NCBI GenBank assembly: GCA_050174575.1
Contig: JBFXJT010000007.1
Span: 6,648-70,647, forward strand
Direction of reading: 5' to 3'
DNA length: 64,000 nt
Source: Bacilli bacterium
Lineage (GTDB): Bacteria > Bacillota_I > Bacilli_A > ML615J-28 > CAG-698
Shown: positions 29,285 to 44,527 of the stretch, in pieces
Position numbering within the stretch: the stretch's first letter is position 1
Layout of the letters: each line of letters begins with the position of its first letter
Translations under genes and position numbers: made by a program
The notes under the pieces: generated by a model
Told to the model about the DNA's origin: nothing
Seen by the model: only the letters and a program-made list of their open reading frames with translations
The model's database searches: none

Positions 29285-29308
29285 AAAAAGGTCCGATTTT
29301 CGGACCTT
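29283..29308. terminator. bidirectional terminator between convergent genes
   Basis: AAGGTCCG-ATTTT-CGGACCTT forms an 8-bp stem. It is flanked by an A-run on the left and a T-rich stretch on the right. Confidence 0.7.
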
Positions 29309-29309
29309 C

Positions 29310-30230
29310 TCACATTAAATTATTTATTTCATCTAAGGTAGGAAGGGCATCAATTGCCCCTTTTTTTGTTGTCACTAACGCGCCTGAAATATTACCAAAC
29401 CGTAAAATTTGTACAATTTGCTCATCAGTTAAATCATCAATATCTAATTTGTCTAAATTGACTAAAACACCAGCATAGAAAGCGTCTCCTGCACCCGTTG
29501 TATCAATTGGTTTTACAATAATTGATGGTACTTTGAGCAAGCGCCCATGGTGAAAAAAAACAGAGCCATCTTTTCCCAAAGTCAAAAAGACTATTTGGTT
29601 TTTTGTTGTGAGTTTCATCAATCCTTTTTCTAAATCTGTTTCACCAGTAAATAAAATTAATTCGTCTTGAGATATTTTTAAATAATCTGCCTTTTTTGCG
29701 TAATATGTATAAATGTTAATTGCTGTTTGCGCATCAACGAATAAATCATCGCGATAGTTAACATCAAAACTTAATGATTTATGGCTTTTTTTCACAAGTT
29801 TAATAATGTGATTTGCAAGTTCTCTTCCTTTTGGTTCGCTTAACAGTAATGAACCAAGATGAACAATATCAGCTTGTTTGATGGCTTCTAAGCTGGTTTT
29901 GGGGATATGAAAATCCGCTTGGTTTTTGTGATAAAAACTAAAGTGGCGTTCGCCATCATCGTCATTCGCAACAAATGCTAAAGTAGTATTGTGAAATGGA
30001 TCTTCCGTAATTAATGTTTTAGAAAAAGGAATTTTAGATGCAAAATCAATTAAAAATTGACCCATCAAATCAACTCCGACATTTCCAACGAACTGAACAT
30101 TTCCTCCATACTTAGCAATGCCACAAGCAACATTAAAAGGAGCTCCACCCGCAAATGTTTGATAAGACATCGTGTTATTAACTTTTTGACCTATTAAATC
30201 AACAAGGATTTCGCCAATACAGACTATCAT
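29310..30230 (-). CDS. fructokinase (PfkB/ribokinase family)
   Basis: Start moved to ATG 30230 (MIVCIGEILVDLIG), 6 nt after AAGGAG. The track start is a GTG overlapping lacI. Motifs GGAPFNVA and DTTGAGDAF. Confidence 0.8.
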   Translation of the reverse strand: MIVCIGEILVDLIGQKVNNTMSYQTFAGGAPFNVACGIAKYGGNVQFVGNVGVDLMGQFLIDFASKIPFSKTLITEDPFHNTTLAFVANDDDGERHFSFYHKNQADFHIPKTSLEAIKQADIVHLGSLLLSEPKGRELANHIIKLVKKSHKSLSFDVNYRDDLFVDAQTAINIYTYYAKKADYLKISQDELILFTGETDLEKGLMKLTTKNQIVFLTLGKDGSVFFHHGRLLKVPSIIVKPIDTTGAGDAFYAGVLVNLDKLDIDDLTDEQIVQILRFGNISGALVTTKKGAIDALPTLDEINNLM

Positions 30231-30240
30231 TTGTTTCTCC

Positions 30241-31203
30241 TTAAGTTGTTTCACCTAAAATTAAATTAGTTGGAACAAAAATGAATTCTTCCGATGTTTC
30301 ATGATTAATTCGTAATATCAGTTGATTAACAATGGCAACGGCAAGAGCTTCAATATCTTGTTTGACAACAGTAAATTTAGGATGTTGTAAAATCTCATCC
30401 ATGACTCCATCAAATGCAATGATTTTGATTTCTTCAGGAACTTTTTTTCCAAGTTGAGTAGCTATCTGAAAGCAAGTATTGGCAAAGGTATCACTTTGGG
30501 CAAAAATTCCGTCCAATGTTGGGTTCTCTTGCATAAATTGTTTTGCAACAACAAATTCTTCACCATGATATACATTCTTATAACAAGAAGTCGGAACCAT
30601 ATTATATTTTTGCATTACATCCAAATAAGCAAAGTAACGTTTTTGTGTTTCTGAAGGAGCAGTGGACATACCACCAATATAGCCAATGTGATGACACCCT
30701 TTTTGGACAAGATGCTCAATGGCTTTAAAAGTACTTTCATAATTATCACTTGTAACACAAGGAACGTTGTCGAGATGACGATCCAAAGTCACTATGTTTA
30801 GCCCTTTGAAATCAACATCCTGATATAAGTGATTGGTGATGAAAATAATCCCGTCGACTTGTCCTGTCTTAATCATATTCAATAAATGAACTTCTTTATC
30901 TCTTTTTCCTTGAGAACTGACAATAATCATTTTGAAACCTTTTTTATACAAGTAATCCTCAATGTAAAAAGCAATTTTACTAAAGAAAACGTGACTAATG
31001 GTTGGAACAAATAGGGCAACTAATCCAGATCTTTGTGCCTGTAGATTTCGCCCTAATTGATTAGGAATGTAATTGAGTGCTTTAATTGCATCTTCTATTT
31101 TTTTTCGCGATTCTTCAGATACATAACCGTTTTTATTAATGTATCGCGAAACAGTTCCCATGCCAACCCCAGCTCGTTTTGCAACTTCTTTCATTTGGGC
31201 CAA
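30241..31203 (-). CDS. LacI family transcriptional regulator
   Basis: 320 aa. N-terminal HTH MKEVAKRAGVGMGTVSRYIN followed by a periplasmic-binding-protein-like sugar domain. TTG start lies 8 nt after AGGAGG. Confidence 0.9.
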   Translation of the reverse strand: MAQMKEVAKRAGVGMGTVSRYINKNGYVSEESRKKIEDAIKALNYIPNQLGRNLQAQRSGLVALFVPTISHVFFSKIAFYIEDYLYKKGFKMIIVSSQGKRDKEVHLLNMIKTGQVDGIIFITNHLYQDVDFKGLNIVTLDRHLDNVPCVTSDNYESTFKAIEHLVQKGCHHIGYIGGMSTAPSETQKRYFAYLDVMQKYNMVPTSCYKNVYHGEEFVVAKQFMQENPTLDGIFAQSDTFANTCFQIATQLGKKVPEEIKIIAFDGVMDEILQHPKFTVVKQDIEALAVAIVNQLILRINHETSEEFIFVPTNLILGETT

Positions 31204-34115: not shown

Positions 34116-36164
34116 CTATTTTACAATAATGTCATATTTGCTTATTTGCTTTAATATAGAACTTCCCCCAACAGTGAAAAATTCAATACCAGTGTCATTT
34201 AAGCCTGGGTAAACATTTCCAGTCATCGTAATATAACCATCATTAATAAAGACTTCAACACTGGAAACGTCTAAAAAGATTCGTAATTTTAAAATCCCAT
34301 TATTTAAGGAAACGTCAGCACTCCTAGTTTGACGGTTGATTTCCGCACCACTGATTGTTTCACCTGAATTTCCTCGATCAAAGATAACTGTTTGTGAAAG
34401 AGCATCATAATAAACTAATGTTTCGTTTTCTGTTCCTTTAAACAGTTTCACCCCAACTTTAGATGCAGATCCAACTTCAATTTCAAGTTCCAGTTCAACC
34501 GTCTTACCAGAAATTTGTGGGAGGACTAAGTTTCCATTAATCGTTTTATTTTGATAACTGACTTCATTTTGACGATAATTTTCGATTTCTCTAACTGGGG
34601 CTTGATAAATATGGCCATCTTTATAGGTCAATTCTCTTGGCAAGGTATAAGCACCAACCCAGTTATGCGCTTGTGTGACTAAAGTACGATCCCACATTTG
34701 CATCCATGCTAGCATAATTGTTCGTCCATCAGGCGTTATCATCGTTTGAGCAGCATAGAAATCAAATCCACCGTCAAATTCTTGAAATTCATCATAATTG
34801 AATTTCCCCGTTTGATAATCAATTCCACCAACCATATAAACTACCGAGTGAATATTTTCAAATTTCGTCTTGTCTCTTGGTAAATTTTGTGGACTAACAA
34901 TTAAAATCTCTTGATTATTTAACTCAATAAAATCTGGGCATTCATAAACACCATTTAACTGTAAGAAATTTGGTGCTTGAGGATTGTTATTGTTCATGAC
35001 TTTGCCAACATAATCCCAACTAGTTAAATTGCTCGAACGATAAAGGACAACCATGCCATAGCCATTTGCTTTCGTACCGATCAAACAATAATAATATCCA
35101 TCATGATAAAACACTTTTGGATCACGAAAATCAGCTGTTGATACACCGATTGGTACCTCAATTGTAGAAATAACTGGATTACGGGTTAATTTTTCAAAAT
35201 TAATCCCATCTTCGGACACTGCTAGATTTTGTGTTTGTTGATTATTGGCTACGCCAGTATACATGAGGTATAATTTCCCATCTTTTTCAATAGCCGTCCC
35301 ACTAAAGCACCCAAAATCTTGATCATATTTTTGATCGGGAGCTAAAGCTACAGGCTGTAATTCCCACTTAACAAAATCCTTCGTTGTTTGATGCCCCCAA
35401 TGCATTGGGCCCCAACTGCTGGCATAAGGGTTAAATTGGTGAAACAAATGACCTTCACCATTAAACCAAATTAATCCGTTGGGATCATTACTCCATCCTA
35501 TTGGAGATGCAGCATGATAAGTATGACGGTAAGTTGGGTTTACAGTATTAAGATTTTCAAGAACATATTGATATGCATCGTGTACTTTTCCCACTTGATC
35601 TTCAACTCCTTGATAATTAACGATAAAATCGTCAACATTGATGTAATTATAGTTATCGGTATTATTATCATTATCAATAATTTTTATTTGAACTGTTTTT
35701 CCAATATGACTACTTCCATCCAATATGACCCGATGGAGAGTATTTGGACTGCTTTCATCAAAATTTAAATTAGCGCGTGTTGCTAATTCATTCCCTCTTG
35801 AGTCAATTAAAGAAACATAACATAAGTCGACATTTGCTCCACCGCTAATCAAAAATCCGATTTTTCCATTCCCTTTTAATTGAAATTTTTCACTTAACAT
35901 AAAACCGGTTTTACTTAAGCCTGCTTTTTTACCATAAAAGAGAAATTCTCCCGTTTGGTTAAAGCGATTGCCATTTTCATCTTTGTCATTAAGAACAACA
36001 CCAGCATCAGTAAAAGCATCACCGTCTTCTTCCCAGTTTTTTAAGGTACCACTTTCAAAACTAGCGTTTAAAAAGGAATATTCGCCATCCACAGTTTGAT
36101 TACATCCTCCTAATATCATGATGAAAGAAAGAAGGATAGCAATCAAAAGCCATTTATTCTTCAT
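34116..36164 (-). CDS. GH32 beta-fructofuranosidase/exo-fructanase lipoprotein with N-terminal binding module
   Basis: 682 aa. Lipobox MILGGC-NQ. Canonical GH32 motifs WSNDPNG (35475-35495), FRDPKVF and YECPDF. Confidence 0.9.
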   Translation of the reverse strand: MKNKWLLIAILLSFIMILGGCNQTVDGEYSFLNASFESGTLKNWEEDGDAFTDAGVVLNDKDENGNRFNQTGEFLFYGKKAGLSKTGFMLSEKFQLKGNGKIGFLISGGANVDLCYVSLIDSRGNELATRANLNFDESSPNTLHRVILDGSSHIGKTVQIKIIDNDNNTDNYNYINVDDFIVNYQGVEDQVGKVHDAYQYVLENLNTVNPTYRHTYHAASPIGWSNDPNGLIWFNGEGHLFHQFNPYASSWGPMHWGHQTTKDFVKWELQPVALAPDQKYDQDFGCFSGTAIEKDGKLYLMYTGVANNQQTQNLAVSEDGINFEKLTRNPVISTIEVPIGVSTADFRDPKVFYHDGYYYCLIGTKANGYGMVVLYRSSNLTSWDYVGKVMNNNNPQAPNFLQLNGVYECPDFIELNNQEILIVSPQNLPRDKTKFENIHSVVYMVGGIDYQTGKFNYDEFQEFDGGFDFYAAQTMITPDGRTIMLAWMQMWDRTLVTQAHNWVGAYTLPRELTYKDGHIYQAPVREIENYRQNEVSYQNKTINGNLVLPQISGKTVELELEIEVGSASKVGVKLFKGTENETLVYYDALSQTVIFDRGNSGETISGAEINRQTRSADVSLNNGILKLRIFLDVSSVEVFINDGYITMTGNVYPGLNDTGIEFFTVGGSSILKQISKYDIIVK

Positions 36165-38544
36165 CCAGTGTTACCTCTTCATAAATTGATTTCATTGTTT
36201 TGACAGTCATTTGGTTTATGTTGACTTCACCATTTTCTGAAAACAAGAGTAACCCTAAAGATGAAGGATCGGGATAAATACGGGCAGAAATAGCTTTTTC
36301 ATTGTTGAAAAAAGCTTCAATTAAAGAACGGTCGAGGTAAATATCCATGACTAAAATATTATTATCTAAAACAAATGAGCCATAGAAATTTCCTGAAATG
36401 TTTTGGTTATCGCTTAATGCACCACTTAAACCTGTTTTTACTCCTAAGGTTTTTAATGTCTCATTAAAATAAAGCGTTGTTTCTTCTAACGTAGTGGCGT
36501 TCTTGCGAACTTTTATTCCAAACAAAGTAGCATTAATGTTTTCAAATTCTACGTGAATATAAAGCATGTCACCCTTTACATCAGTTAATAGGGTGTTGGC
36601 TTCACTGATGGACTTATTGCTCATTGTGACTAATGTCTCTTGGTAATAGTCTTCTAGTGCGGATACTGGGCGAATCATTAAATCCGTTCCGTCACTGTTT
36701 AAATAAACTTCTCTAGCCAGTCCAACACAGTTTGCCCACCCAGATAAATAGACATCCGATGGTTTCCTTTGATCCTGCATGATACTGAAAAGATAAGTTT
36801 TTTGGGAAACTGGATCAATAAAACCTGAAGGGCCAGTAAAAACATTATTACCATAATCAAGTAGTCTTGGAGTCGTCCCAAAAGCAGGATCGGGAATAAA
36901 ACGACCAGCAGTTTTATCGAAAGTACCAAGCCAATAATAAATATCATTATCGGCACTGTCAGCAGGAGCAGGACTAATAATCAACATATATTTTGTAATT
37001 GTTTTACTTTCGTTTGTTACGGGAAGCATAATCGGAAGTTCCCAAACAGGCCCTAAATCGGCAGGTTGATTGACTTGTTCGTACAATTGCCCTTTGTAGG
37101 TCCAATTATTAAACGAGTCATCCTTTGTTGTATAAAGTAAAGCTGTCCCACCAGTATTGATTTTGGTACTTGATGATCCAATTAGTAAAAACCAAGTATC
37201 TTCTTCTTGCCAAACATGGGCATCACGAAATTGTCCCGATGCTCCTTGACCAGCTACTTGTTTAATAGCTAATTCATCATCGATTACCCATTCTGTTAAG
37301 TAGGGATCGGTTGGATCTTTGGGCCTAGCAATACCAATGTTTTGATTGCTTATCAAACCATCTTTTTGATAAGAGTCATTTCCAGCAGTAAATAGTAAGA
37401 CGGGAATGCCTTCATTATCATAAGTTACACCACCGCTCCATACACCATCCGGACAAACGGAATCAGCTGTTGGGGTGATAACTTCTTTTAATGGACGCCA
37501 ATTAACCATATCATCACTGATTAAATGCCCCCATCCAATATTGCGAAAATAAGGGCCAAACATATTGAATTGGAAAAATAAGTGATAATACCCATTGTAA
37601 TACATTGGAGCATGAGGTTCATTCATCCAGTGTTGATAAGGACCACCATGATATTGTGTTTTATAAAAATCATCTGTCAGAATATTTTGTAACCAAATAT
37701 CCTCAAAAGCAATTTCCGGAACTGTCTTACTTTCGTAAACTTGCTTTACATCATTTGCTTGTAAACTGGCTTCATAGACTTTTAACTCATCAATCAATCC
37801 ACTTACCATATTTAAAGTTGCCGTAGCATTCGAACCTGGATAACTATTACGAGCAATGAGGAAGGGTTCGCCCGACGCTCCCATAATGGTTGCCCCTTCG
37901 AAAAAATAATCAATGTTGACTAATTCGCCATTTAAATATATGGCCATTTCGCCTTGATCACCATCGAAGGTTGCCACAATATGATTCCATTCATATTTTT
38001 TAAGGGGATTACCTTCATCCCATAAAGTTAACCATCGGTCACCAAGACCTACTTGAAAGCTCCAAGAACCATGGCGTTGATAGCCAAGAATAAATCCTTG
38101 GTTTTCACTTTTATTGTGTTGAGAAACAATCGCTGTTAATTTATCAGTTCCATTGTCTTTGGCATTGGGATCGTCCCACTCAAAGGCCCTTGGAGCAATC
38201 CAAACACTAATTGATAATTTTGAACCGCGAATTTTTAAATCTTCTTCTTGATAACGGATAAAATTAGAATATCCATCAAACAATAAGGAGCCATTATTGA
38301 TCCCTGTTGCGCGCCACTGTGGATCCTCAGGATTTTCCATAAAGCTAGGGTTTGTGAAAACATAAGCAACAGTCGCTGGAGCTTCGTTTTTCGAAGCATC
38401 ATTCACTTTGTTGCCCTGACCTTCATCAAAAGTTAAATGTAACAATAAATCTTTTGTATAAGGGTCGCTCTTTCCACATGCATATAAACTTGAAACAATG
38501 AATAATAGGAAAAAAATAGTCAATAGTTTTTTTGTTATCATCAT
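36154..38544 (-). CDS. LamG-domain + divergent GH32-like lipoprotein (WMNEPH variant)
   Basis: 796 aa. Lipobox SSLYAC-GK. N-terminal concanavalin/LamG-like domain (LFDGYSNFIRY...LSISVWIAPRAFEW...IYLNGELV). GH32 propeller with HWMNEPH (37612-37629), FRDAHVW and VWELP. Confidence 0.8.
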   Translation of the reverse strand: MMITKKLLTIFFLLFIVSSLYACGKSDPYTKDLLLHLTFDEGQGNKVNDASKNEAPATVAYVFTNPSFMENPEDPQWRATGINNGSLLFDGYSNFIRYQEEDLKIRGSKLSISVWIAPRAFEWDDPNAKDNGTDKLTAIVSQHNKSENQGFILGYQRHGSWSFQVGLGDRWLTLWDEGNPLKKYEWNHIVATFDGDQGEMAIYLNGELVNIDYFFEGATIMGASGEPFLIARNSYPGSNATATLNMVSGLIDELKVYEASLQANDVKQVYESKTVPEIAFEDIWLQNILTDDFYKTQYHGGPYQHWMNEPHAPMYYNGYYHLFFQFNMFGPYFRNIGWGHLISDDMVNWRPLKEVITPTADSVCPDGVWSGGVTYDNEGIPVLLFTAGNDSYQKDGLISNQNIGIARPKDPTDPYLTEWVIDDELAIKQVAGQGASGQFRDAHVWQEEDTWFLLIGSSSTKINTGGTALLYTTKDDSFNNWTYKGQLYEQVNQPADLGPVWELPIMLPVTNESKTITKYMLIISPAPADSADNDIYYWLGTFDKTAGRFIPDPAFGTTPRLLDYGNNVFTGPSGFIDPVSQKTYLFSIMQDQRKPSDVYLSGWANCVGLAREVYLNSDGTDLMIRPVSALEDYYQETLVTMSNKSISEANTLLTDVKGDMLYIHVEFENINATLFGIKVRKNATTLEETTLYFNETLKTLGVKTGLSGALSDNQNISGNFYGSFVLDNNILVMDIYLDRSLIEAFFNNEKAISARIYPDPSSLGLLLFSENGEVNINQMTVKTMKSIYEEVTLDEE

Positions 38545-38555
38545 CTTTTTCCCTC

Positions 38556-40904
38556 CTAGATTGTTTTCATTTTAATTACTTGCAAAACATCAACCATAAT
38601 TTGACCATCAGCAAATAACGACATTTCCGATGCATTGTTATAAACCATCGCCGTCAATGTTTGATACCCATTGATGTATATTTCAATCATTGCTCCATCA
38701 ATAAATATTTCTAAATCTAATACTTCCCCAGGAAGAAGAGAAATTCCTCCCCCAAAGATTCCTTTCACAACACTATTTCCAGAATTAGTTGTATCAATTG
38801 AAATAAATTGATCGATTGCGTTATAATTTAGGACTGTCTTTCTCCCTAGTTGATCTTCTTTTAAAGTAAGTCCAAAATTTTGAGAATTTTCATTAGTTAA
38901 TTGAACATGCAAGTATAACTGATTGCCGACCACTGATGCTAAAGCTTGGTTTGCAAATTCAATATTAGTATCTTTTTTATCAACAATGACATCAGTTTTT
39001 AAATTATTTAATTCGTTTAAAGGGGTAATTTTTAAACTGCCGGCATCATCAAGTGACAATTGACGAGGAATACCAGCAGTATGGGCCCATCCTGCATCAT
39101 AATCTTGATGACCATTTCGTTGGCCTTGAATAATGCTACAAATTAAAACACGTCCTGTTAGGGGATCCGTCGAAACCGTTGGCCCCGTAAACACATTGTT
39201 CCCAAAATCCATTAATTTTGGATCTTCATGTTCAGGAATAAAAGTCATCGTTGTTTTATCGAAGTCCCCCAAATAATAGTAAATATCATTATCCGCACCA
39301 GAACCCGCGGGAGAAAACGCAAATATATACTTAGAAACTGTTTTATTAGCGTTCGTTATTTTCGCAAGATTTACTAATTCCCATGTCGTACCCATATAAT
39401 TATGATAAACAGAAGGCATGAACAGTTCGCCTTGATAATCCCAATTCAAAAAAGAATCGTCTTGAGTTGTAAATACTTGGGCAGTTCCTTTATTATCATA
39501 ACGAGCAGATCCGACAAACATGTAGTAAGTTCCATCTTCAAAATAAATATTTGGATCACGAAATTCGTTTGTTTTGGCCATTGATGGTGTTGAGACGGCT
39601 ACTAATTGATCGCTTACATCCCACTCCGTTAAATCAGGATCGCTTAAATCTTTCGGTATTGCAATGGCGATATTTTGATTGCTCCATTGCCCAAAGCTTT
39701 TGGCATCATCACCGGCTGTAAAAAATAATACGGGTGTTCCATCAGCTTTGTATGACGCTCCTCCCGACCAAATACCATCAGGACAAACAGAATTTTTCAT
39801 AAGAATAATGGCTTCTTTCACATTGCGCCAATTGACCATATCAGGACTTACCCAATGACCCCATGCAATTTGCCGCCAGTATGGCCCAGTAAGATTAAAT
39901 TGATAAAACAAATGGTAATTTCCATTGAAATAAAACAAAGCATGTGGTTCATTCATCCAATGTTGAGGTGGTGAAGCATGATATTGAGGTTTGTATATAT
40001 CATCATCTAGCAATTCGTCATTAAGCCAAGCATCTTTAAAATCAATGGCTTTCATGCGGTTTTTTTGTACAAAACTGTTGTGATAGGCTATTATATCCTC
40101 TTCTTTAATTGATGCTTGGTAAATTTTAAGTTCGTCCATTAAACCATTGAACATATTAATTTCATAAAGGCCTGTTTTTTGGGGAACCTGGCTTTTTCCG
40201 ATATACAAAGATGTATTCGCAGCAATAATCTCGCCAAATACATCATTGTGAAAATTAATTATTTCCCCGTTTTTGTATATCCCCATAAATCCGTTTGTTC
40301 CATCAAAAACAAAGGTAAGATGATTCCAAGTATAACGGTCAAGATCATTCCACTCATTCCAAAGTTTAACCCAGCGATCGCCAAGTCCTATTTGAAAGGA
40401 ATATTCACCATATTTATGCATGCCGATAACAAAACCTTGATTTTCTGACATGATGTATTGCCCTAAAACAACTTGCAAATGCTCCGTTCCGTTAACAACT
40501 GCTCCTGGAACATCCCATTCAAACATCCTTGGGCTAATGAATAAATCAATAGTTAAGTTAGGACCGCTAATTTGAATATCCTGATAATCATATTTTATAT
40601 AATTCGAATAACCATCAAAGGCTAAACATGCACCACTAATTGCTGAATTTGTAATCCAAGTTGGATCAATCGATTGCTTGTATTCAGCATCCGTGAAGAC
40701 ATATTCAATCGTGGCTTTTGTCATTGTTGTTTGTTCAGTAAGTTCGTTACCTTCATTTTCATCAAAAGAAGTTGCAAATATTAATTTATCTTGATAAGGG
40801 TCATGATAATCGTGATAATAAATTGCATCCTCCTCTGTTTTTGCACAACCAATAAAGGCCATCATTAAACAAAAAACTGTGATAATTAATAAACCTTTTT
40901 TCAA
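38556..40904 (-). CDS. LamG-domain + divergent GH32-like lipoprotein (WMNEPH variant), paralog of the downstream gene
   Basis: 782 aa with a TTG start after GGAAGTGG. Lipobox AFIGC-AK. Same architecture as the paralog, with HWMNEPH (39942-39959), FRDPNIY and TWELV. Confidence 0.8.
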   Translation of the reverse strand: MKKGLLIITVFCLMMAFIGCAKTEEDAIYYHDYHDPYQDKLIFATSFDENEGNELTEQTTMTKATIEYVFTDAEYKQSIDPTWITNSAISGACLAFDGYSNYIKYDYQDIQISGPNLTIDLFISPRMFEWDVPGAVVNGTEHLQVVLGQYIMSENQGFVIGMHKYGEYSFQIGLGDRWVKLWNEWNDLDRYTWNHLTFVFDGTNGFMGIYKNGEIINFHNDVFGEIIAANTSLYIGKSQVPQKTGLYEINMFNGLMDELKIYQASIKEEDIIAYHNSFVQKNRMKAIDFKDAWLNDELLDDDIYKPQYHASPPQHWMNEPHALFYFNGNYHLFYQFNLTGPYWRQIAWGHWVSPDMVNWRNVKEAIILMKNSVCPDGIWSGGASYKADGTPVLFFTAGDDAKSFGQWSNQNIAIAIPKDLSDPDLTEWDVSDQLVAVSTPSMAKTNEFRDPNIYFEDGTYYMFVGSARYDNKGTAQVFTTQDDSFLNWDYQGELFMPSVYHNYMGTTWELVNLAKITNANKTVSKYIFAFSPAGSGADNDIYYYLGDFDKTTMTFIPEHEDPKLMDFGNNVFTGPTVSTDPLTGRVLICSIIQGQRNGHQDYDAGWAHTAGIPRQLSLDDAGSLKITPLNELNNLKTDVIVDKKDTNIEFANQALASVVGNQLYLHVQLTNENSQNFGLTLKEDQLGRKTVLNYNAIDQFISIDTTNSGNSVVKGIFGGGISLLPGEVLDLEIFIDGAMIEIYINGYQTLTAMVYNNASEMSLFADGQIMVDVLQVIKMKTI

Positions 40905-40916
40905 ATTACCACTTCC

Positions 40917-41843
40917 TTACTTCAATCCAGTAAAAGCGACACCTTCAATAATATATCTTTGAGCAAAAATATAAACTAAGGCGATCGGAATCGTACTAAA
41001 TGTTAAGGATGCCATAACTAAAGAAATATCTTTCGGATTAAAATTATTAATCAACTGTAAAAATACTTGCAAAGGTTGTTGCACTGGATTAGAGAACATT
41101 AATTGTGCAAACACATATTCGTTCCAACTTCCCATAAATGTAAAAATAGCGACTGTTGCAAATACTGGCAATGATAGAGGAACAATAACCTTAAAGAAGG
41201 TTGTTAATTTACTAGCACCATCAACATAAGCTGCTTCTTCTAATTCTTTAGGAATTCCCAAGAAAAAAGCCCGAAACATGAAGATATAAAAGGGACTAAC
41301 AATACCTGGTAATAAATAACCAATGACTCTCAATTCTGCTGTCAATAATCCCAAATTTTTTAAAATAACATACAAAGGAACAATAGAAGTCTCAACAGGA
41401 ACAATTAATATTAAAATAATGATACTAACGATGGTTTTATGACCAGGAAAAACAAAACGAGACAACGCATAACCGGCAAGTGAGTTAACTAATAAAACAC
41501 CTGTAATCGAAATTGTTGCATAAATGACACTGTTAAGAATGGATCTTCCAAAATTATCAAAAGTTGCAAATAAATTTTGATAAGATAAAAACCATTTGCT
41601 GATATTCCAAGTAGCTGGTAAAAAGGTTTTTATGGAATTGATGGAGGCATACACTTCTGCTTGAGTTTTAAAACTATTCGAAAGCATCCATACTACAGGA
41701 AATAAAAAGATAATGCATAGCACGATTAAAAAAATTCTAAATAATGTTTTCGCAATTATTTCACGAACTGAGTAATGTCTTTTTTGTTTTTTAGGCAATT
41801 GTAGTATTGATAATGGAATGTTTTTTCGCTTCTTTTTCATCAT
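40917..41843 (-). CDS. carbohydrate ABC transporter permease (MalG-like)
   Basis: Six TM helices and an EAA-type loop (ELEEAAYVDGASKLTTFFKVIVP). Start placed at MMKKKRKN (41843 or 41840) after GAGGTG, rather than the track start that overlaps the upstream gene. Confidence 0.9.
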   Translation of the reverse strand: MMKKKRKNIPLSILQLPKKQKRHYSVREIIAKTLFRIFLIVLCIIFLFPVVWMLSNSFKTQAEVYASINSIKTFLPATWNISKWFLSYQNLFATFDNFGRSILNSVIYATISITGVLLVNSLAGYALSRFVFPGHKTIVSIIILILIVPVETSIVPLYVILKNLGLLTAELRVIGYLLPGIVSPFYIFMFRAFFLGIPKELEEAAYVDGASKLTTFFKVIVPLSLPVFATVAIFTFMGSWNEYVFAQLMFSNPVQQPLQVFLQLINNFNPKDISLVMASLTFSTIPIALVYIFAQRYIIEGVAFTGLK

Positions 41844-41850
41844 TATCACC

Positions 41851-42783
41851 TCAAATTGTGTTATCTTTCTCAAAGACTTTTCTTAAGGTTAAAGCAATCG
41901 TAGCCATAAAGATGGTATAAATTAAAGCGATGGCACTTGAATAACCAACATCCCGGAAATTAATACCTTGCAAATAAATATAATAAGACATCGTTAAGGT
42001 CCGGTCAATCGGACCTCCTCTTGTCATAATCATTGGTTGGGTAATCAACCTAAATGCCCCAATCATCATTGTAATCAGCACAAATGAGAATGTAGGCTTG
42101 ATGCTAGGAAGGGTAATCCGCCAGAATTGTTGGAATTTATTCGCTCCATCGATGCTTGATGCTTCATACAGCTCTTTTGGAATATTTTTTAGTGCTGACA
42201 AGAAAATTAACATTTGGTAACCTGCTCCCTGCCAAGCAGAAATCATGACAATTAAATCCATGGCTTGTTCGGGATCGCTTAAGAAAAGTTGTCTCGATAA
42301 ACCAATAGTTTCAAGGAGGGCATTTATCAATCCATCTTGCTCATTCAATAAGTTAATCCATAACATCGATGTGACCGCCAATGACAACATTGTTGGCACA
42401 AAGAATGCCCATCTAAAAAAGGTATTTCCCTTCATTGGCTTATTTAAAATCAAGGCTAACAAAAGAGCTGCACCAAGTTGTAACGGAATAACTTTTAAAA
42501 CAAATTCCATTGTGTTTTTAAATGCTTGAAGAAGAATTTTATCTTGAAAGGCATTTTTAAAGTTTGCAAAACCAATAAAAGTTGTATTATTTAACTCTAA
42601 TAAATTGGCATCTGTAAACGAATAGGCTAGAGAAATAACAATGGGCATAATGACAAATATAATTCCTAAAATAACAGCAGGAAGCAAAAAACTCCAACCT
42701 ATAATCGTATCAGAAGTTCGGTATGTTTTCCCAAATAATTTAAAATACATTCGGGTATTTGGTTTTTTTACAGATCCTACCAT
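41851..42783 (-). CDS. carbohydrate ABC transporter permease (MalF-like)
   Basis: 310 aa. EAA loop ELYEASSIDGANKFQQFWRITLP. Confidence 0.9.
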   Translation of the reverse strand: MVGSVKKPNTRMYFKLFGKTYRTSDTIIGWSFLLPAVILGIIFVIMPIVISLAYSFTDANLLELNNTTFIGFANFKNAFQDKILLQAFKNTMEFVLKVIPLQLGAALLLALILNKPMKGNTFFRWAFFVPTMLSLAVTSMLWINLLNEQDGLINALLETIGLSRQLFLSDPEQAMDLIVMISAWQGAGYQMLIFLSALKNIPKELYEASSIDGANKFQQFWRITLPSIKPTFSFVLITMMIGAFRLITQPMIMTRGGPIDRTLTMSYYIYLQGINFRDVGYSSAIALIYTIFMATIALTLRKVFEKDNTI

Positions 42784-42793
42784 TTTTCACCTC

Positions 42794-44134
42794 TTAATTG
42801 TCAATTTGAACGACTTGAGTGTCAATGTAATCTTCTAAATTGTATTCTGTTGTTCCATTCATTGTTTCGATGTATTCAATAATTTTACTGTAGCTACTAC
42901 TTACTTTAGGATAGTTGATCATTTTTGGTCGGGGAGTAGCAATTTCTTGTAAAATAGTTGCTAATGAACCTAAAGCTCCCGTTTGGAATCCTGTTAAATC
43001 ATTCAAAAGTGATTTATGGGTTGGAAATGTTCCAATTGATTCATACATTAATTGGCTTCCAGTAACTCCTGTTATATAAGCAACAGCAATCGCTGCTGAA
43101 GCAGGATCGGATGAATTAACCGTTACTCCAAATCCCCATGAACCACAACCAGCAACCGGCGTTCCTTTTGTAGTTTCGTCTTCATAAACAGGCATCGGCA
43201 TAATTCCATAACTTGGAATAAAAGTATTATAATTTTTCTTAATCGTCGAAATATTCCATGGTCCGTGAATTTCAAAAGCGCATTCTCCACCTGCTAAAGC
43301 ATCTGTATTGCTGCCATTGTAAACCCAAGGTTCGCCATCATCATCGGGGTTGAAGAACATTTCTAACATTTTAATTCCTTTAATAGAATTAGAAGAGTTA
43401 AGGGCACCATCAACGACTTCATTGGCGCCAAAGAAACTCCCACCTGAAGAATATATTAATGATGAATATAAATACATGACACCTTCATCGCCACCAAATC
43501 CTAAGTTCAATTTAATTCGATATTCAAGGTTGGCAGCTTTTAGGGCAACCATTGCTTCCATAACATCAAGCCAAGACCAAGGATTAGTAACTGTCCCAAA
43601 ATCTTCTTCATCATAACCAACTTGCTTTAATAAATCCTTATTAAAATACATTCCAGTTGGCGCATCCATACCGGATAAAGCATATAATTTTCCATCAATC
43701 GTACTTTGTTCGATGACGCTGTCAACATAACTCGAAGTAATATCAGTTGTTAAATATTGATCAATCGGTGCTAAAATGCCCGCATCAGCATAAGCAGCTA
43801 TATTAGGGGCATCAACAGCAACAATGTCAGGAAGTCCTCCTGATAGAATTTCCGCGTTGATTGCTGTTTGTAAAGTATCAGAACTGTTTTTAAATTCTAA
43901 TTTCATTTTTAAAATTCTTGTTCCATCAGCAGTTTTTAATTGTTGTTCATTAAACAATTCAGCAATTGTGGAATAAACAATCCCTTCATCTTCTGCTTCG
44001 GATTTATGAACCCAAACCTTAATTACTTTTACCTCGTCCGTATCTTCATCTTCTGCTGGACCACAACCAACAAACACCAAGAAACTAAGCAAAAGTACCA
44101 TAACACTTAAAAAAAGTTTTCCAAAATTTTTCAT
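42794..44134 (-). CDS. extracellular sugar-binding lipoprotein of the ABC transporter
   Basis: 446 aa. Lipobox LVFVGC-GP. Family-1 solute-binding protein features. First gene after the promoter. Confidence 0.85.
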   Translation of the reverse strand: MKNFGKLFLSVMVLLLSFLVFVGCGPAEDEDTDEVKVIKVWVHKSEAEDEGIVYSTIAELFNEQQLKTADGTRILKMKLEFKNSSDTLQTAINAEILSGGLPDIVAVDAPNIAAYADAGILAPIDQYLTTDITSSYVDSVIEQSTIDGKLYALSGMDAPTGMYFNKDLLKQVGYDEEDFGTVTNPWSWLDVMEAMVALKAANLEYRIKLNLGFGGDEGVMYLYSSLIYSSGGSFFGANEVVDGALNSSNSIKGIKMLEMFFNPDDDGEPWVYNGSNTDALAGGECAFEIHGPWNISTIKKNYNTFIPSYGIMPMPVYEDETTKGTPVAGCGSWGFGVTVNSSDPASAAIAVAYITGVTGSQLMYESIGTFPTHKSLLNDLTGFQTGALGSLATILQEIATPRPKMINYPKVSSSYSKIIEYIETMNGTTEYNLEDYIDTQVVQIDN

Positions 44135-44305: not shown

Positions 44306-44334
44306 ATTTTAAACCACCCCGTTTTTTTTGTCAA
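44306..44334 (-). promoter_or_regulatory. near-consensus sigma-A promoter of the fructan locus
   Basis: On the minus strand: TTGACA (44329-44334), 17 nt, TAAAAT (44306-44311). Confidence 0.7.
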
Positions 44335-44360: not shown

Positions 44361-44391
44361 ATAAAAAATACTATGGCGTTTCCCATAGTAT
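44361..44391 (-). terminator. intrinsic terminator after tRNA-Ser(CGA)
   Basis: Minus strand reads ATACTATGG-GAAACG-CCATAGTAT followed by TTTTTTATTTTT. Confidence 0.75.
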
Positions 44392-44436
44392 CTAAAAACT
44401 GATTGTTATTCTCTTCTTATTTTCTTAATAATTTAA

Positions 44437-44527
44437 TGGCGGAGGAGAAGGGATTTGAACCCTTGCACCGTTTTACCGATCTGCTCGCTTTCGAGACGAG
44501 TCCCTTCAGCCGCTTGGGTACTCCTCC
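44437..44527 (-). tRNA. tRNA-Ser (anticodon CGA)
   Basis: 91 nt. GGAGGAG acceptor, anticodon stem-loop CTCGT-CTCGAAA-GCGAG, long variable arm, T-arm AAGGGTTCAAATCCCTT, encoded CCA. Confidence 0.9.

Follow-up and report, generated by a model that had tools for sequence, protein, structure and literature searches.

A glutamate in the nucleophile block of two tandem LamG-GH32 lipoproteins marks a large clade of putative surface fructanases

The window analysed here, 64,000 nucleotides of DNA from a Bacilli bacterium (assembly GCA_050174575.1, contig JBFXJT010000007.1, positions 6,648 to 70,647), contains a fructan cluster in which two tandem genes encode lipoproteins of glycoside hydrolase family 32 (GH32), here called A and B, that carry a glutamate where canonical members of the family have their nucleophilic aspartate; the third GH32 lipoprotein of the cluster, C, is canonical. 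What does this exchange mean for the two enzymes? The original prediction, made from the sequence alone, held that A and B represent a functional and distinct GH32 subgroup rather than decay, and that their chemistry or specificity may be altered. The first part is upheld by catalytic-domain positions conserved to at least 97%, by alignment to solved enzymes and by an AlphaFold2 model with a GH32 fold. Our results suggest that A and B are probably active, lipid-anchored surface fructanases of the inulinase type, endo-acting or oligosaccharide-releasing, that belong to a fructan utilisation operon. The features of the two proteins are as follows.

38556-40904, minus strand: paralogue A, 782 aa, TTG start; lipoprotein signal (Cys20), LamG domain, GH32 catalytic domain and GH32 C-terminal domain
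40080-40787, minus strand: LamG / concanavalin-like jelly-roll domain of A, about residues 40-275
39939-39959, minus strand: nucleophile block WMNEPHA of A (WMNEPH at 39942-39959), Glu319 the predicted nucleophile
39543-39563, minus strand: block FRDPNIY of A, Asp450 the predicted transition-state stabiliser
39369-39383, minus strand: block WELVN of A, Glu509 the predicted acid/base, with no Cys after the Glu
36154-38544, minus strand: paralogue B, 796 aa, ATG start; lipoprotein signal (Cys23), LamG domain, GH32 catalytic domain and GH32 C-terminal domain
37609-37629, minus strand: nucleophile block WMNEPHA of B (WMNEPH at 37612-37629), Glu309 the predicted nucleophile
37210-37230, minus strand: block FRDAHVW of B, Asp441 the predicted transition-state stabiliser, RDA replacing RDP
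37030-37044, minus strand: block WELPI of B, Glu502 the predicted acid/base

The motifs from which the original prediction started are confirmed on translation: both paralogues read HWMNEPH, the RDP block is retained in each, and the acid/base Glu is kept while EC(P) becomes WELV in A and WELP in B. Over the full length the two proteins share 40% identity. In each, Pfam identifies Laminin_G_3, which agrees with the LamG-like N-terminal domain that had been proposed, followed by Glyco_hydro_32N and Glyco_hydro_32C. Their membership of GH32 is clear from the scores of the catalytic domain model PF00251 (195.8 bits for A and 184.8 for B; cut-off 22.1) and the C-terminal domain model PF08244 (64.4 and 79.7 bits; cut-off 21.9), all above the curated cut-offs, and the predicted fold has the five-bladed beta-propeller and subsequent beta-sandwich typical of the family. 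The scrB_fam model of sucrose-6-phosphate hydrolases (TIGR01322; cut-off 356.4 bits) is reached by neither A (184.4 bits) nor B (155.4 bits). The best structural match of the LamG domain is domain 4 of the GH43 arabinanase AbnA of Geobacillus stearothermophilus (5HON), and lectin-like domains are also similar; AbnA differs from A and B in enzyme family, in substrate and in the position of this domain in the polypeptide.

Both signal peptides end in a bacterial lipoprotein pattern (...MMAFIGC in A, ...VSSLYAC in B). A lipobox Cys is found at residues 20-24 in A, B, C, the neighbouring 914-aa lipoprotein and the solute-binding protein of the cluster, and the pattern recurs in 87 of 134 full-length homologues; A and B are predicted to be lipid-anchored surface proteins. 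The ribosome-binding sites are GGAAGTGG before the TTG start of A and AGGAGG before the ATG of B. In the public annotation (P0001, 769 aa) the gene for A begins at an internal Met and loses the signal peptide, while the TTG at 40904, with its ribosome-binding site, gives A a full lipoprotein signal (window 40865-40904). P0006, a further gene call of 1092 aa that includes an ABC permease domain, resembles a fusion of permease 2 with an A-type enzyme.

In phmmer alignments the WMNEPH of A and B lies, without gaps and with maximal posterior confidence, on the nucleophile block of seven solved GH32 enzymes, which settles in the affirmative the claim that the Glu occupies the nucleophile position. 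It matches the nucleophile Asp of W(I/M)NDPN in the Frischella enzyme 7VCO, Bifidobacterium 3PIG, the Arabidopsis invertase 2QQU, the Aspergillus awamori exo-inulinase 1Y4W, Thermotoga 1UYP and 8I12, and it falls on Glu43 in the YWMNEPNG block of the A. ficuum endo-inulinase INU2 (3RWK). Both proteins hold the complete catalytic triad of the family, with a carboxylate in WMN(D/E)PN, the Asp of RDP and the Glu of the EC(P) block, and the AlphaFold2 model folds confidently as GH32. Family-wide conservation reaches at least 97% at the triad and at 79 other positions of the catalytic domain; in A numbering the invariant or at least 97% conserved residues include W316, N318, E319, Q335, W379-S380-G381, R449-D450 and E509. 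A chance occurrence of the motif was considered and rejected, the block being homologous and aligned gap-free, and so was decay or a pseudogene, given intact open reading frames, ribosome-binding sites and family-wide conservation. We found no solved structure that combines LamG with GH32.

Is the exchange a new one? The GH32 motif has been written WMN(D/E)PN, with Glu in endo-inulinases where other GH32 enzymes have Asp, and INU2 has Val234 in place of the Cys of ECP (PMC13416181; PMC5245892). The nucleophile of INU2 is Glu43, and its E43D variant retains about 5% of the activity with an unchanged product pattern (PMC3829992); the E-to-D substitution suggested by the original prediction has already been made in INU2. 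In EnIA, an endo-inulinase of Arthrobacter sp. S37 encoded by a 2439-bp gene, mutagenesis identified Glu323 as the nucleophile, Asp460 as essential and Glu519 as the acid/base (PMC5984348). Among the characterised GH32 enzymes found in this analysis, a Glu nucleophile occurs only in endo-inulinases. The Asp-to-Glu change is an established GH32 variant that involves no new chemistry, and the novelty implied for it does not stand. Of the proposed change in chemistry or specificity, the chemical half is not needed, because Glu is the characterised nucleophile of INU2 and EnIA, and endo-fructanase activity, one of the specificities suggested, is the option that the literature backs.

To place A and B among their relatives we defined, as an operational name, a LamG-GH32 clade in which Laminin_G_3 lies directly N-terminal to a GH32 enzyme with W[MT]NE..[AG] and WE[LM]P-type motifs; A and B both belong to it. 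At E <= 1e-10 the search for homologues yielded 1385 proteins; 135 of their sequences were retrieved, and all 135 of these close homologues have Glu at the nucleophile position (WMNEPH[AGS], a few WMNEQH and one WMTEPH). More distant representatives were taken as 50%-identity clusters, 386 at E <= 1e-30, and the best 150 of these were examined: 132 of about 140 that could be aligned have Glu at both the nucleophile and the acid/base positions, with motifs W[MT]NEPH[AG], FRDP and WE[LM]P and with LamG in nearly all, while four have Asp at the nucleophile position. Judged from these alignments, the Glu of the clade is conserved by descent and not by chance, since it is kept in both sets. A more distant Bacteroidota/Acidobacteria branch, reached through P0247, the most WxNEPNG-like of the representatives, has Glu in 113 of 114 members; a type IX secretion system (T9SS) sorting domain is frequent there and the members carry generic names only.

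Across the family the acid/base motif is WE[LM]P or WEL[VT]. In a neighbour-joining tree built from the catalytic plus C-terminal domains, A-type proteins (WEL[VT]N) and B-type proteins (WELP) form separate clades, and six catalytic-domain positions are fixed differently in the two; these types appear to be old lineages that have been conserved separately. Three of the four Asp-bearing LamG-GH32 representatives form a small clade of their own, and the fourth (P0232, WMNDPNG, no LamG) lies outside, as does protein C.

Some members of the wider group are unusual. Within the LamG-GH32 clade, an Asp sub-clade (among P0198, P0212, P0223 and P0224) reads W[SMV]SD... at the nucleophile position; in P0224 (GWTGRPMA / FQDPF / MWVAPT) none of the three catalytic residues survives, and this protein may have ceased to be an enzyme. 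Giant multidomain relatives of 1200-2275 aa also occur (P0137, P0152, P0165, P0173 and others), and in Priestia megaterium S2 (locus L059, 7427-12793) a 1788-aa open reading frame is followed by a 798-aa paralogue. B itself is identical to a protein of a 'Bacilli bacterium' metagenome-assembled genome (MAG).

The names given to homologues by their sources are generic ('GH32 C-terminal domain-containing protein', 'LamG-like jellyroll fold domain-containing protein', 'SacC', 'beta-fructofuranosidase'), with one exception. This is a GH32 protein of Thermoanaerobacter italicus Ab9 (WP_012996024), deposited as a synthetic expression construct under the name 'InuG' (WGF13389.1), which has the same LamG, GH32N and GH32C domains as A and B. 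With WMNEPHA and WELPV it is of the B type, sharing 43% identity with B along the whole protein and 40% with A; unlike them it comes from a thermophile, and its N-terminal membrane or signal segment shows no obvious lipobox. Our literature searches found no publication or activity data on it.

The closest characterised systems resemble A and B in part. INU2 (PDB 3RWK/3SC7; GH32, EC 3.2.1.7) has the same Glu/Asp/Glu triad at only 20-22% identity; it is fungal, lacks both LamG and a lipid anchor, and continues after the motif Pro with NG where A and B have HA. In INU2 the catalytic cavity is enlarged, being shaped by loops 1 and 4, and enzymes of this class are characterised by inulotriose, inulotetraose or longer oligosaccharides as the first products from inulin. 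Its acid/base Glu lacks a following Cys (EVP), a trait shared by A (WELV) and B (WELP) along with the Glu nucleophile in WMNEP; this absence is not universal among endo-inulinases, as EnIA is reported to have ECMP. EnIA is bacterial, has about 812 residues as implied by its gene, and spaces its catalytic residues at 323/460/519, compared with 319/450/509 in A and 309/441/502 in B. This agreement in numbering and gene length implies the same N-terminal extension of about 300 residues. EnIA differs in its motifs (WMNEPNG, RD(F?) and ECMP, against WMNEPHA and WELP) and is actinobacterial and secreted, whereas A and B are predicted to be lipid-anchored. Canonical exo-type GH32 enzymes such as 7VCO and protein C differ from A and B in having an Asp nucleophile (W[MI]NDPNG), an ECP acid/base block and no LamG. 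For the role that we suggest, the endo-levanases BT1760 of Bacteroides thetaiotaomicron and LevB1 of Bacillus licheniformis are comparable: they are endo-acting GH32 enzymes, surface-bound or secreted, that supply a system for fructan utilisation.

The genomic surroundings of the clade were compared in 74 loci from Clostridia, Lachnospiraceae, Christensenellaceae, Oscillospiraceae, Bacillaceae, Paenibacillus and Acholeplasmatales. The B-type protein is widespread, and its neighbours are almost always a canonical Asp-type GH32, permeases of the ATP-binding cassette (ABC) type, a fructokinase and a LacI regulator; the 914-aa protein frequently accompanies them, and the A-type is an extra paralogue in a subset of loci only. 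The gene order of the window recurs in six loci (L001-L004, L042 and L056) at 49-94% protein identity. As a canonical GH32 is co-encoded in nearly all loci, we argue that the role of the LamG-GH32 proteins is not redundant with that of the exo-type enzyme. In the window this partner is protein C, whose catalytic motifs are WSNDPNG (35475-35495, as the original prediction had it), FRDPKVF and YECPD and which passes scrB_fam with 427.7 bits. With WSNDPNG, FRDP and YECP all present, C is predicted to be an exo-type beta-fructofuranosidase.

We favour the endo-inulinase reading of A and B for two reasons: the combination of a Glu nucleophile with a missing ECP is known so far from endo-inulinases only, and almost every locus encodes an exo-type enzyme as well. 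A number of observations weigh against it. The clade shows no specific sequence relationship to a characterised endo-inulinase: INU2 reaches 148.6 bits with the clade profile, less than the 167-213 bits of exo-acting GH32 enzymes, a relationship judged from profile scores. As INU2 is not the nearest enzyme by this measure, the Glu may have arisen by convergence and is not necessarily a sign of endo attack. A search with an INU2 fragment for full-length fungal endo-inulinases returned only five short exon fragments of less than 100 aa. The membership of EnIA in the clade, and its LamG domain, are inferred from residue numbering, and none of the retrieved proteins resembled EnIA, whether by catalytic positions 323/460/519 or by the motif WMNEPNG. 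The literature searched offered neither published biochemistry for any WMNEPH(A/G) clade member nor a paper treating GH32 together with LamG, and a wider search on domain names brought up nothing pertinent either. Finally, the mode of attack cannot be read from sequence, as even classical 'endo-inulinases' may be exo-type enzymes that release oligosaccharides (PMC11760859), and the linkage attacked may be beta-2,1 or beta-2,6.

These points leave room for other explanations. A and B could be exo-acting beta-fructofuranosidases or levanases of the ordinary kind whose nucleophile simply happens to be Glu, with LamG merely tethering them to the polymer; the solved structures closest in sequence and fold are exo-acting (7VCO, 3PIG, 1UYP and 1Y4W) and some sources annotate the homologues as 'beta-fructofuranosidase' or 'SacC'. 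We regard this as unlikely, since a second and third exo enzyme would be redundant beside the Asp-type GH32 found in almost every locus, the Glu nucleophile belongs to endo-inulinases among the characterised enzymes found, and scrB_fam scores of 184 and 155 bits lie far below the cut-off of 356. The separation of A-type and B-type into old clades with six fixed catalytic-domain differences would also fit a split between beta-2,1 and beta-2,6 linkages, with one or both paralogues an endo-levanase or a mixed-linkage (graminan/agavin) endo-fructanase. Rumen MAGs and gut MAGs of rabbit, goat, sheep and yak account for many of the homologues, and grass levan-type fructans dominate in such herbivore guts; even so, we think this improbable.

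Fructotransferase activity, forming cycloinulo-oligosaccharides or difructose anhydrides instead of hydrolysing fructan, is a very unlikely function for A and B. GH32 does contain levan fructotransferases (4FFF-4FFI) and also includes cycloinulo-oligosaccharide fructanotransferases, and the very long multidomain relatives would be in keeping with such a role; however, the levan fructotransferase uses Asp54 and matches the clade profile weakly (E 2e-10), and the operon is a plain catabolic one with an exo-GH32 and a fructokinase, no difructose-anhydride hydrolase being recognised. It is harder still to believe that A and B are lectin-like surface proteins that arose from GH32 and lost catalysis. 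The canonical Asp is absent and P0224 shows that the catalytic residues can be lost in a distant representative, but hundreds of sequences show no variation in the Glu/Asp/Glu triad or the sugar-binding blocks, and a Glu nucleophile is proven to be functional in INU2 and EnIA. A bolder version of the endo-acting reading is that the Glu-type LamG-GH32 clade is a GH32 subfamily not described so far, distinct in structure and function, in which LamG forms part of an extended substrate cleft and the A- and B-types differ in linkage or branch specificity, for instance as an endo-inulinase and an endo-levanase or graminanase. We offer this tentatively, as doubtful; if true, it would make the clade the main endo-fructanase system of gut Firmicutes.

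Returning to A and B as surface fructanases that are endo-acting or release oligosaccharides, from architecture, motif positions, conservation, fold and synteny as observed we infer activity, endo mode, substrate, LamG role and a division of labour, and we propose the following mechanism. A and B would work by retaining double displacement, with Glu319/Glu309 as nucleophile, the Asp of RD(P/A) as transition-state stabiliser and the Glu of WEL(V/P) as acid/base. At the cell surface they would make the first cuts, by attacking plant fructan internally or by releasing short oligosaccharides, on a substrate that is most likely inulin-type and possibly mixed or levan-type too. The LamG domain is probably a substrate-binding module that helps to hold the polymer, and the 914-aa lipoprotein, a putative surface fructan-binding protein, probably captures fructan through its four modules, which are copies of the N-terminal beta-sandwich module of protein C (about residues 22-190). 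The products may be trimmed by C, imported by the adjacent ABC transporter, or both; freed fructose would be phosphorylated by the fructokinase, with the cluster under LacI control. The two paralogues probably differ in linkage or chain-length preference.

Dietary fructans, inulin and grass levans among them, are major prebiotic substrates, and the first cut in long-chain fructan is far less defined for Gram-positive gut bacteria than for Bacteroides. The locus is part of a very widespread, conserved Firmicute set of Glu-type LamG-GH32, canonical GH32, ABC importer, LacI and fructokinase. With the Glu variant itself established, the interest that is left lies in the size of the clade, which is large and uncharacterised, with no solved structure and almost no literature, in the conserved A/B pair, which amounts to a natural specificity experiment, and in the repeat module shared by C and the 914-aa protein. 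The combination of WMNEPH/WELP with LamG may serve as a metagenome sequence marker for probable endo-type fructanases.

The remaining features of the cluster are listed below.

44306-44334, minus strand: promoter-like site upstream of the operon, best sigma-70-like match (TTGACA-17-TAAAAT, 11/12)
42794-44134, minus strand: solute-binding lipoprotein of a sugar ABC importer (SBP_bac_1)
41851-42783, minus strand: ABC permease 1 (BPD_transp_1)
40917-41873, minus strand: ABC permease 2 (BPD_transp_1)
34116-36164, minus strand: canonical GH32 lipoprotein C, 682 aa
31354-34098, minus strand: 914-aa repeat lipoprotein
30241-31203, minus strand: LacI-family regulator
29310-30254, minus strand: PfkB-family fructokinase
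29285-29311, minus strand: intrinsic-terminator-like hairpin with a 12-bp stem and T run, closing the cluster

All genes of the cluster are on the minus strand, in the order solute-binding protein, two ABC permeases, A, B, C, 914-aa lipoprotein, LacI regulator and fructokinase, and neighbours are separated by gaps of 11-13 nt or overlap. The promoter-like site is a consensus match only, in a region whose number of such sites equals the shuffle expectation. Directly upstream of it lies a tRNA-Ser(CGA) gene (44437-44527), whose own terminator-like hairpin (44366-44393) precedes the site. The closest genomic relative of the whole operon is L001 (CAZYFI010000002.1), with the same gene order and 76-94% protein identity; it is labelled 'uncultured Bacteroidales bacterium', a label or binning that we consider doubtful, because the operon is of the Firmicute lipoprotein/ABC type and no SusC/D-like genes are among the open reading frames seen.

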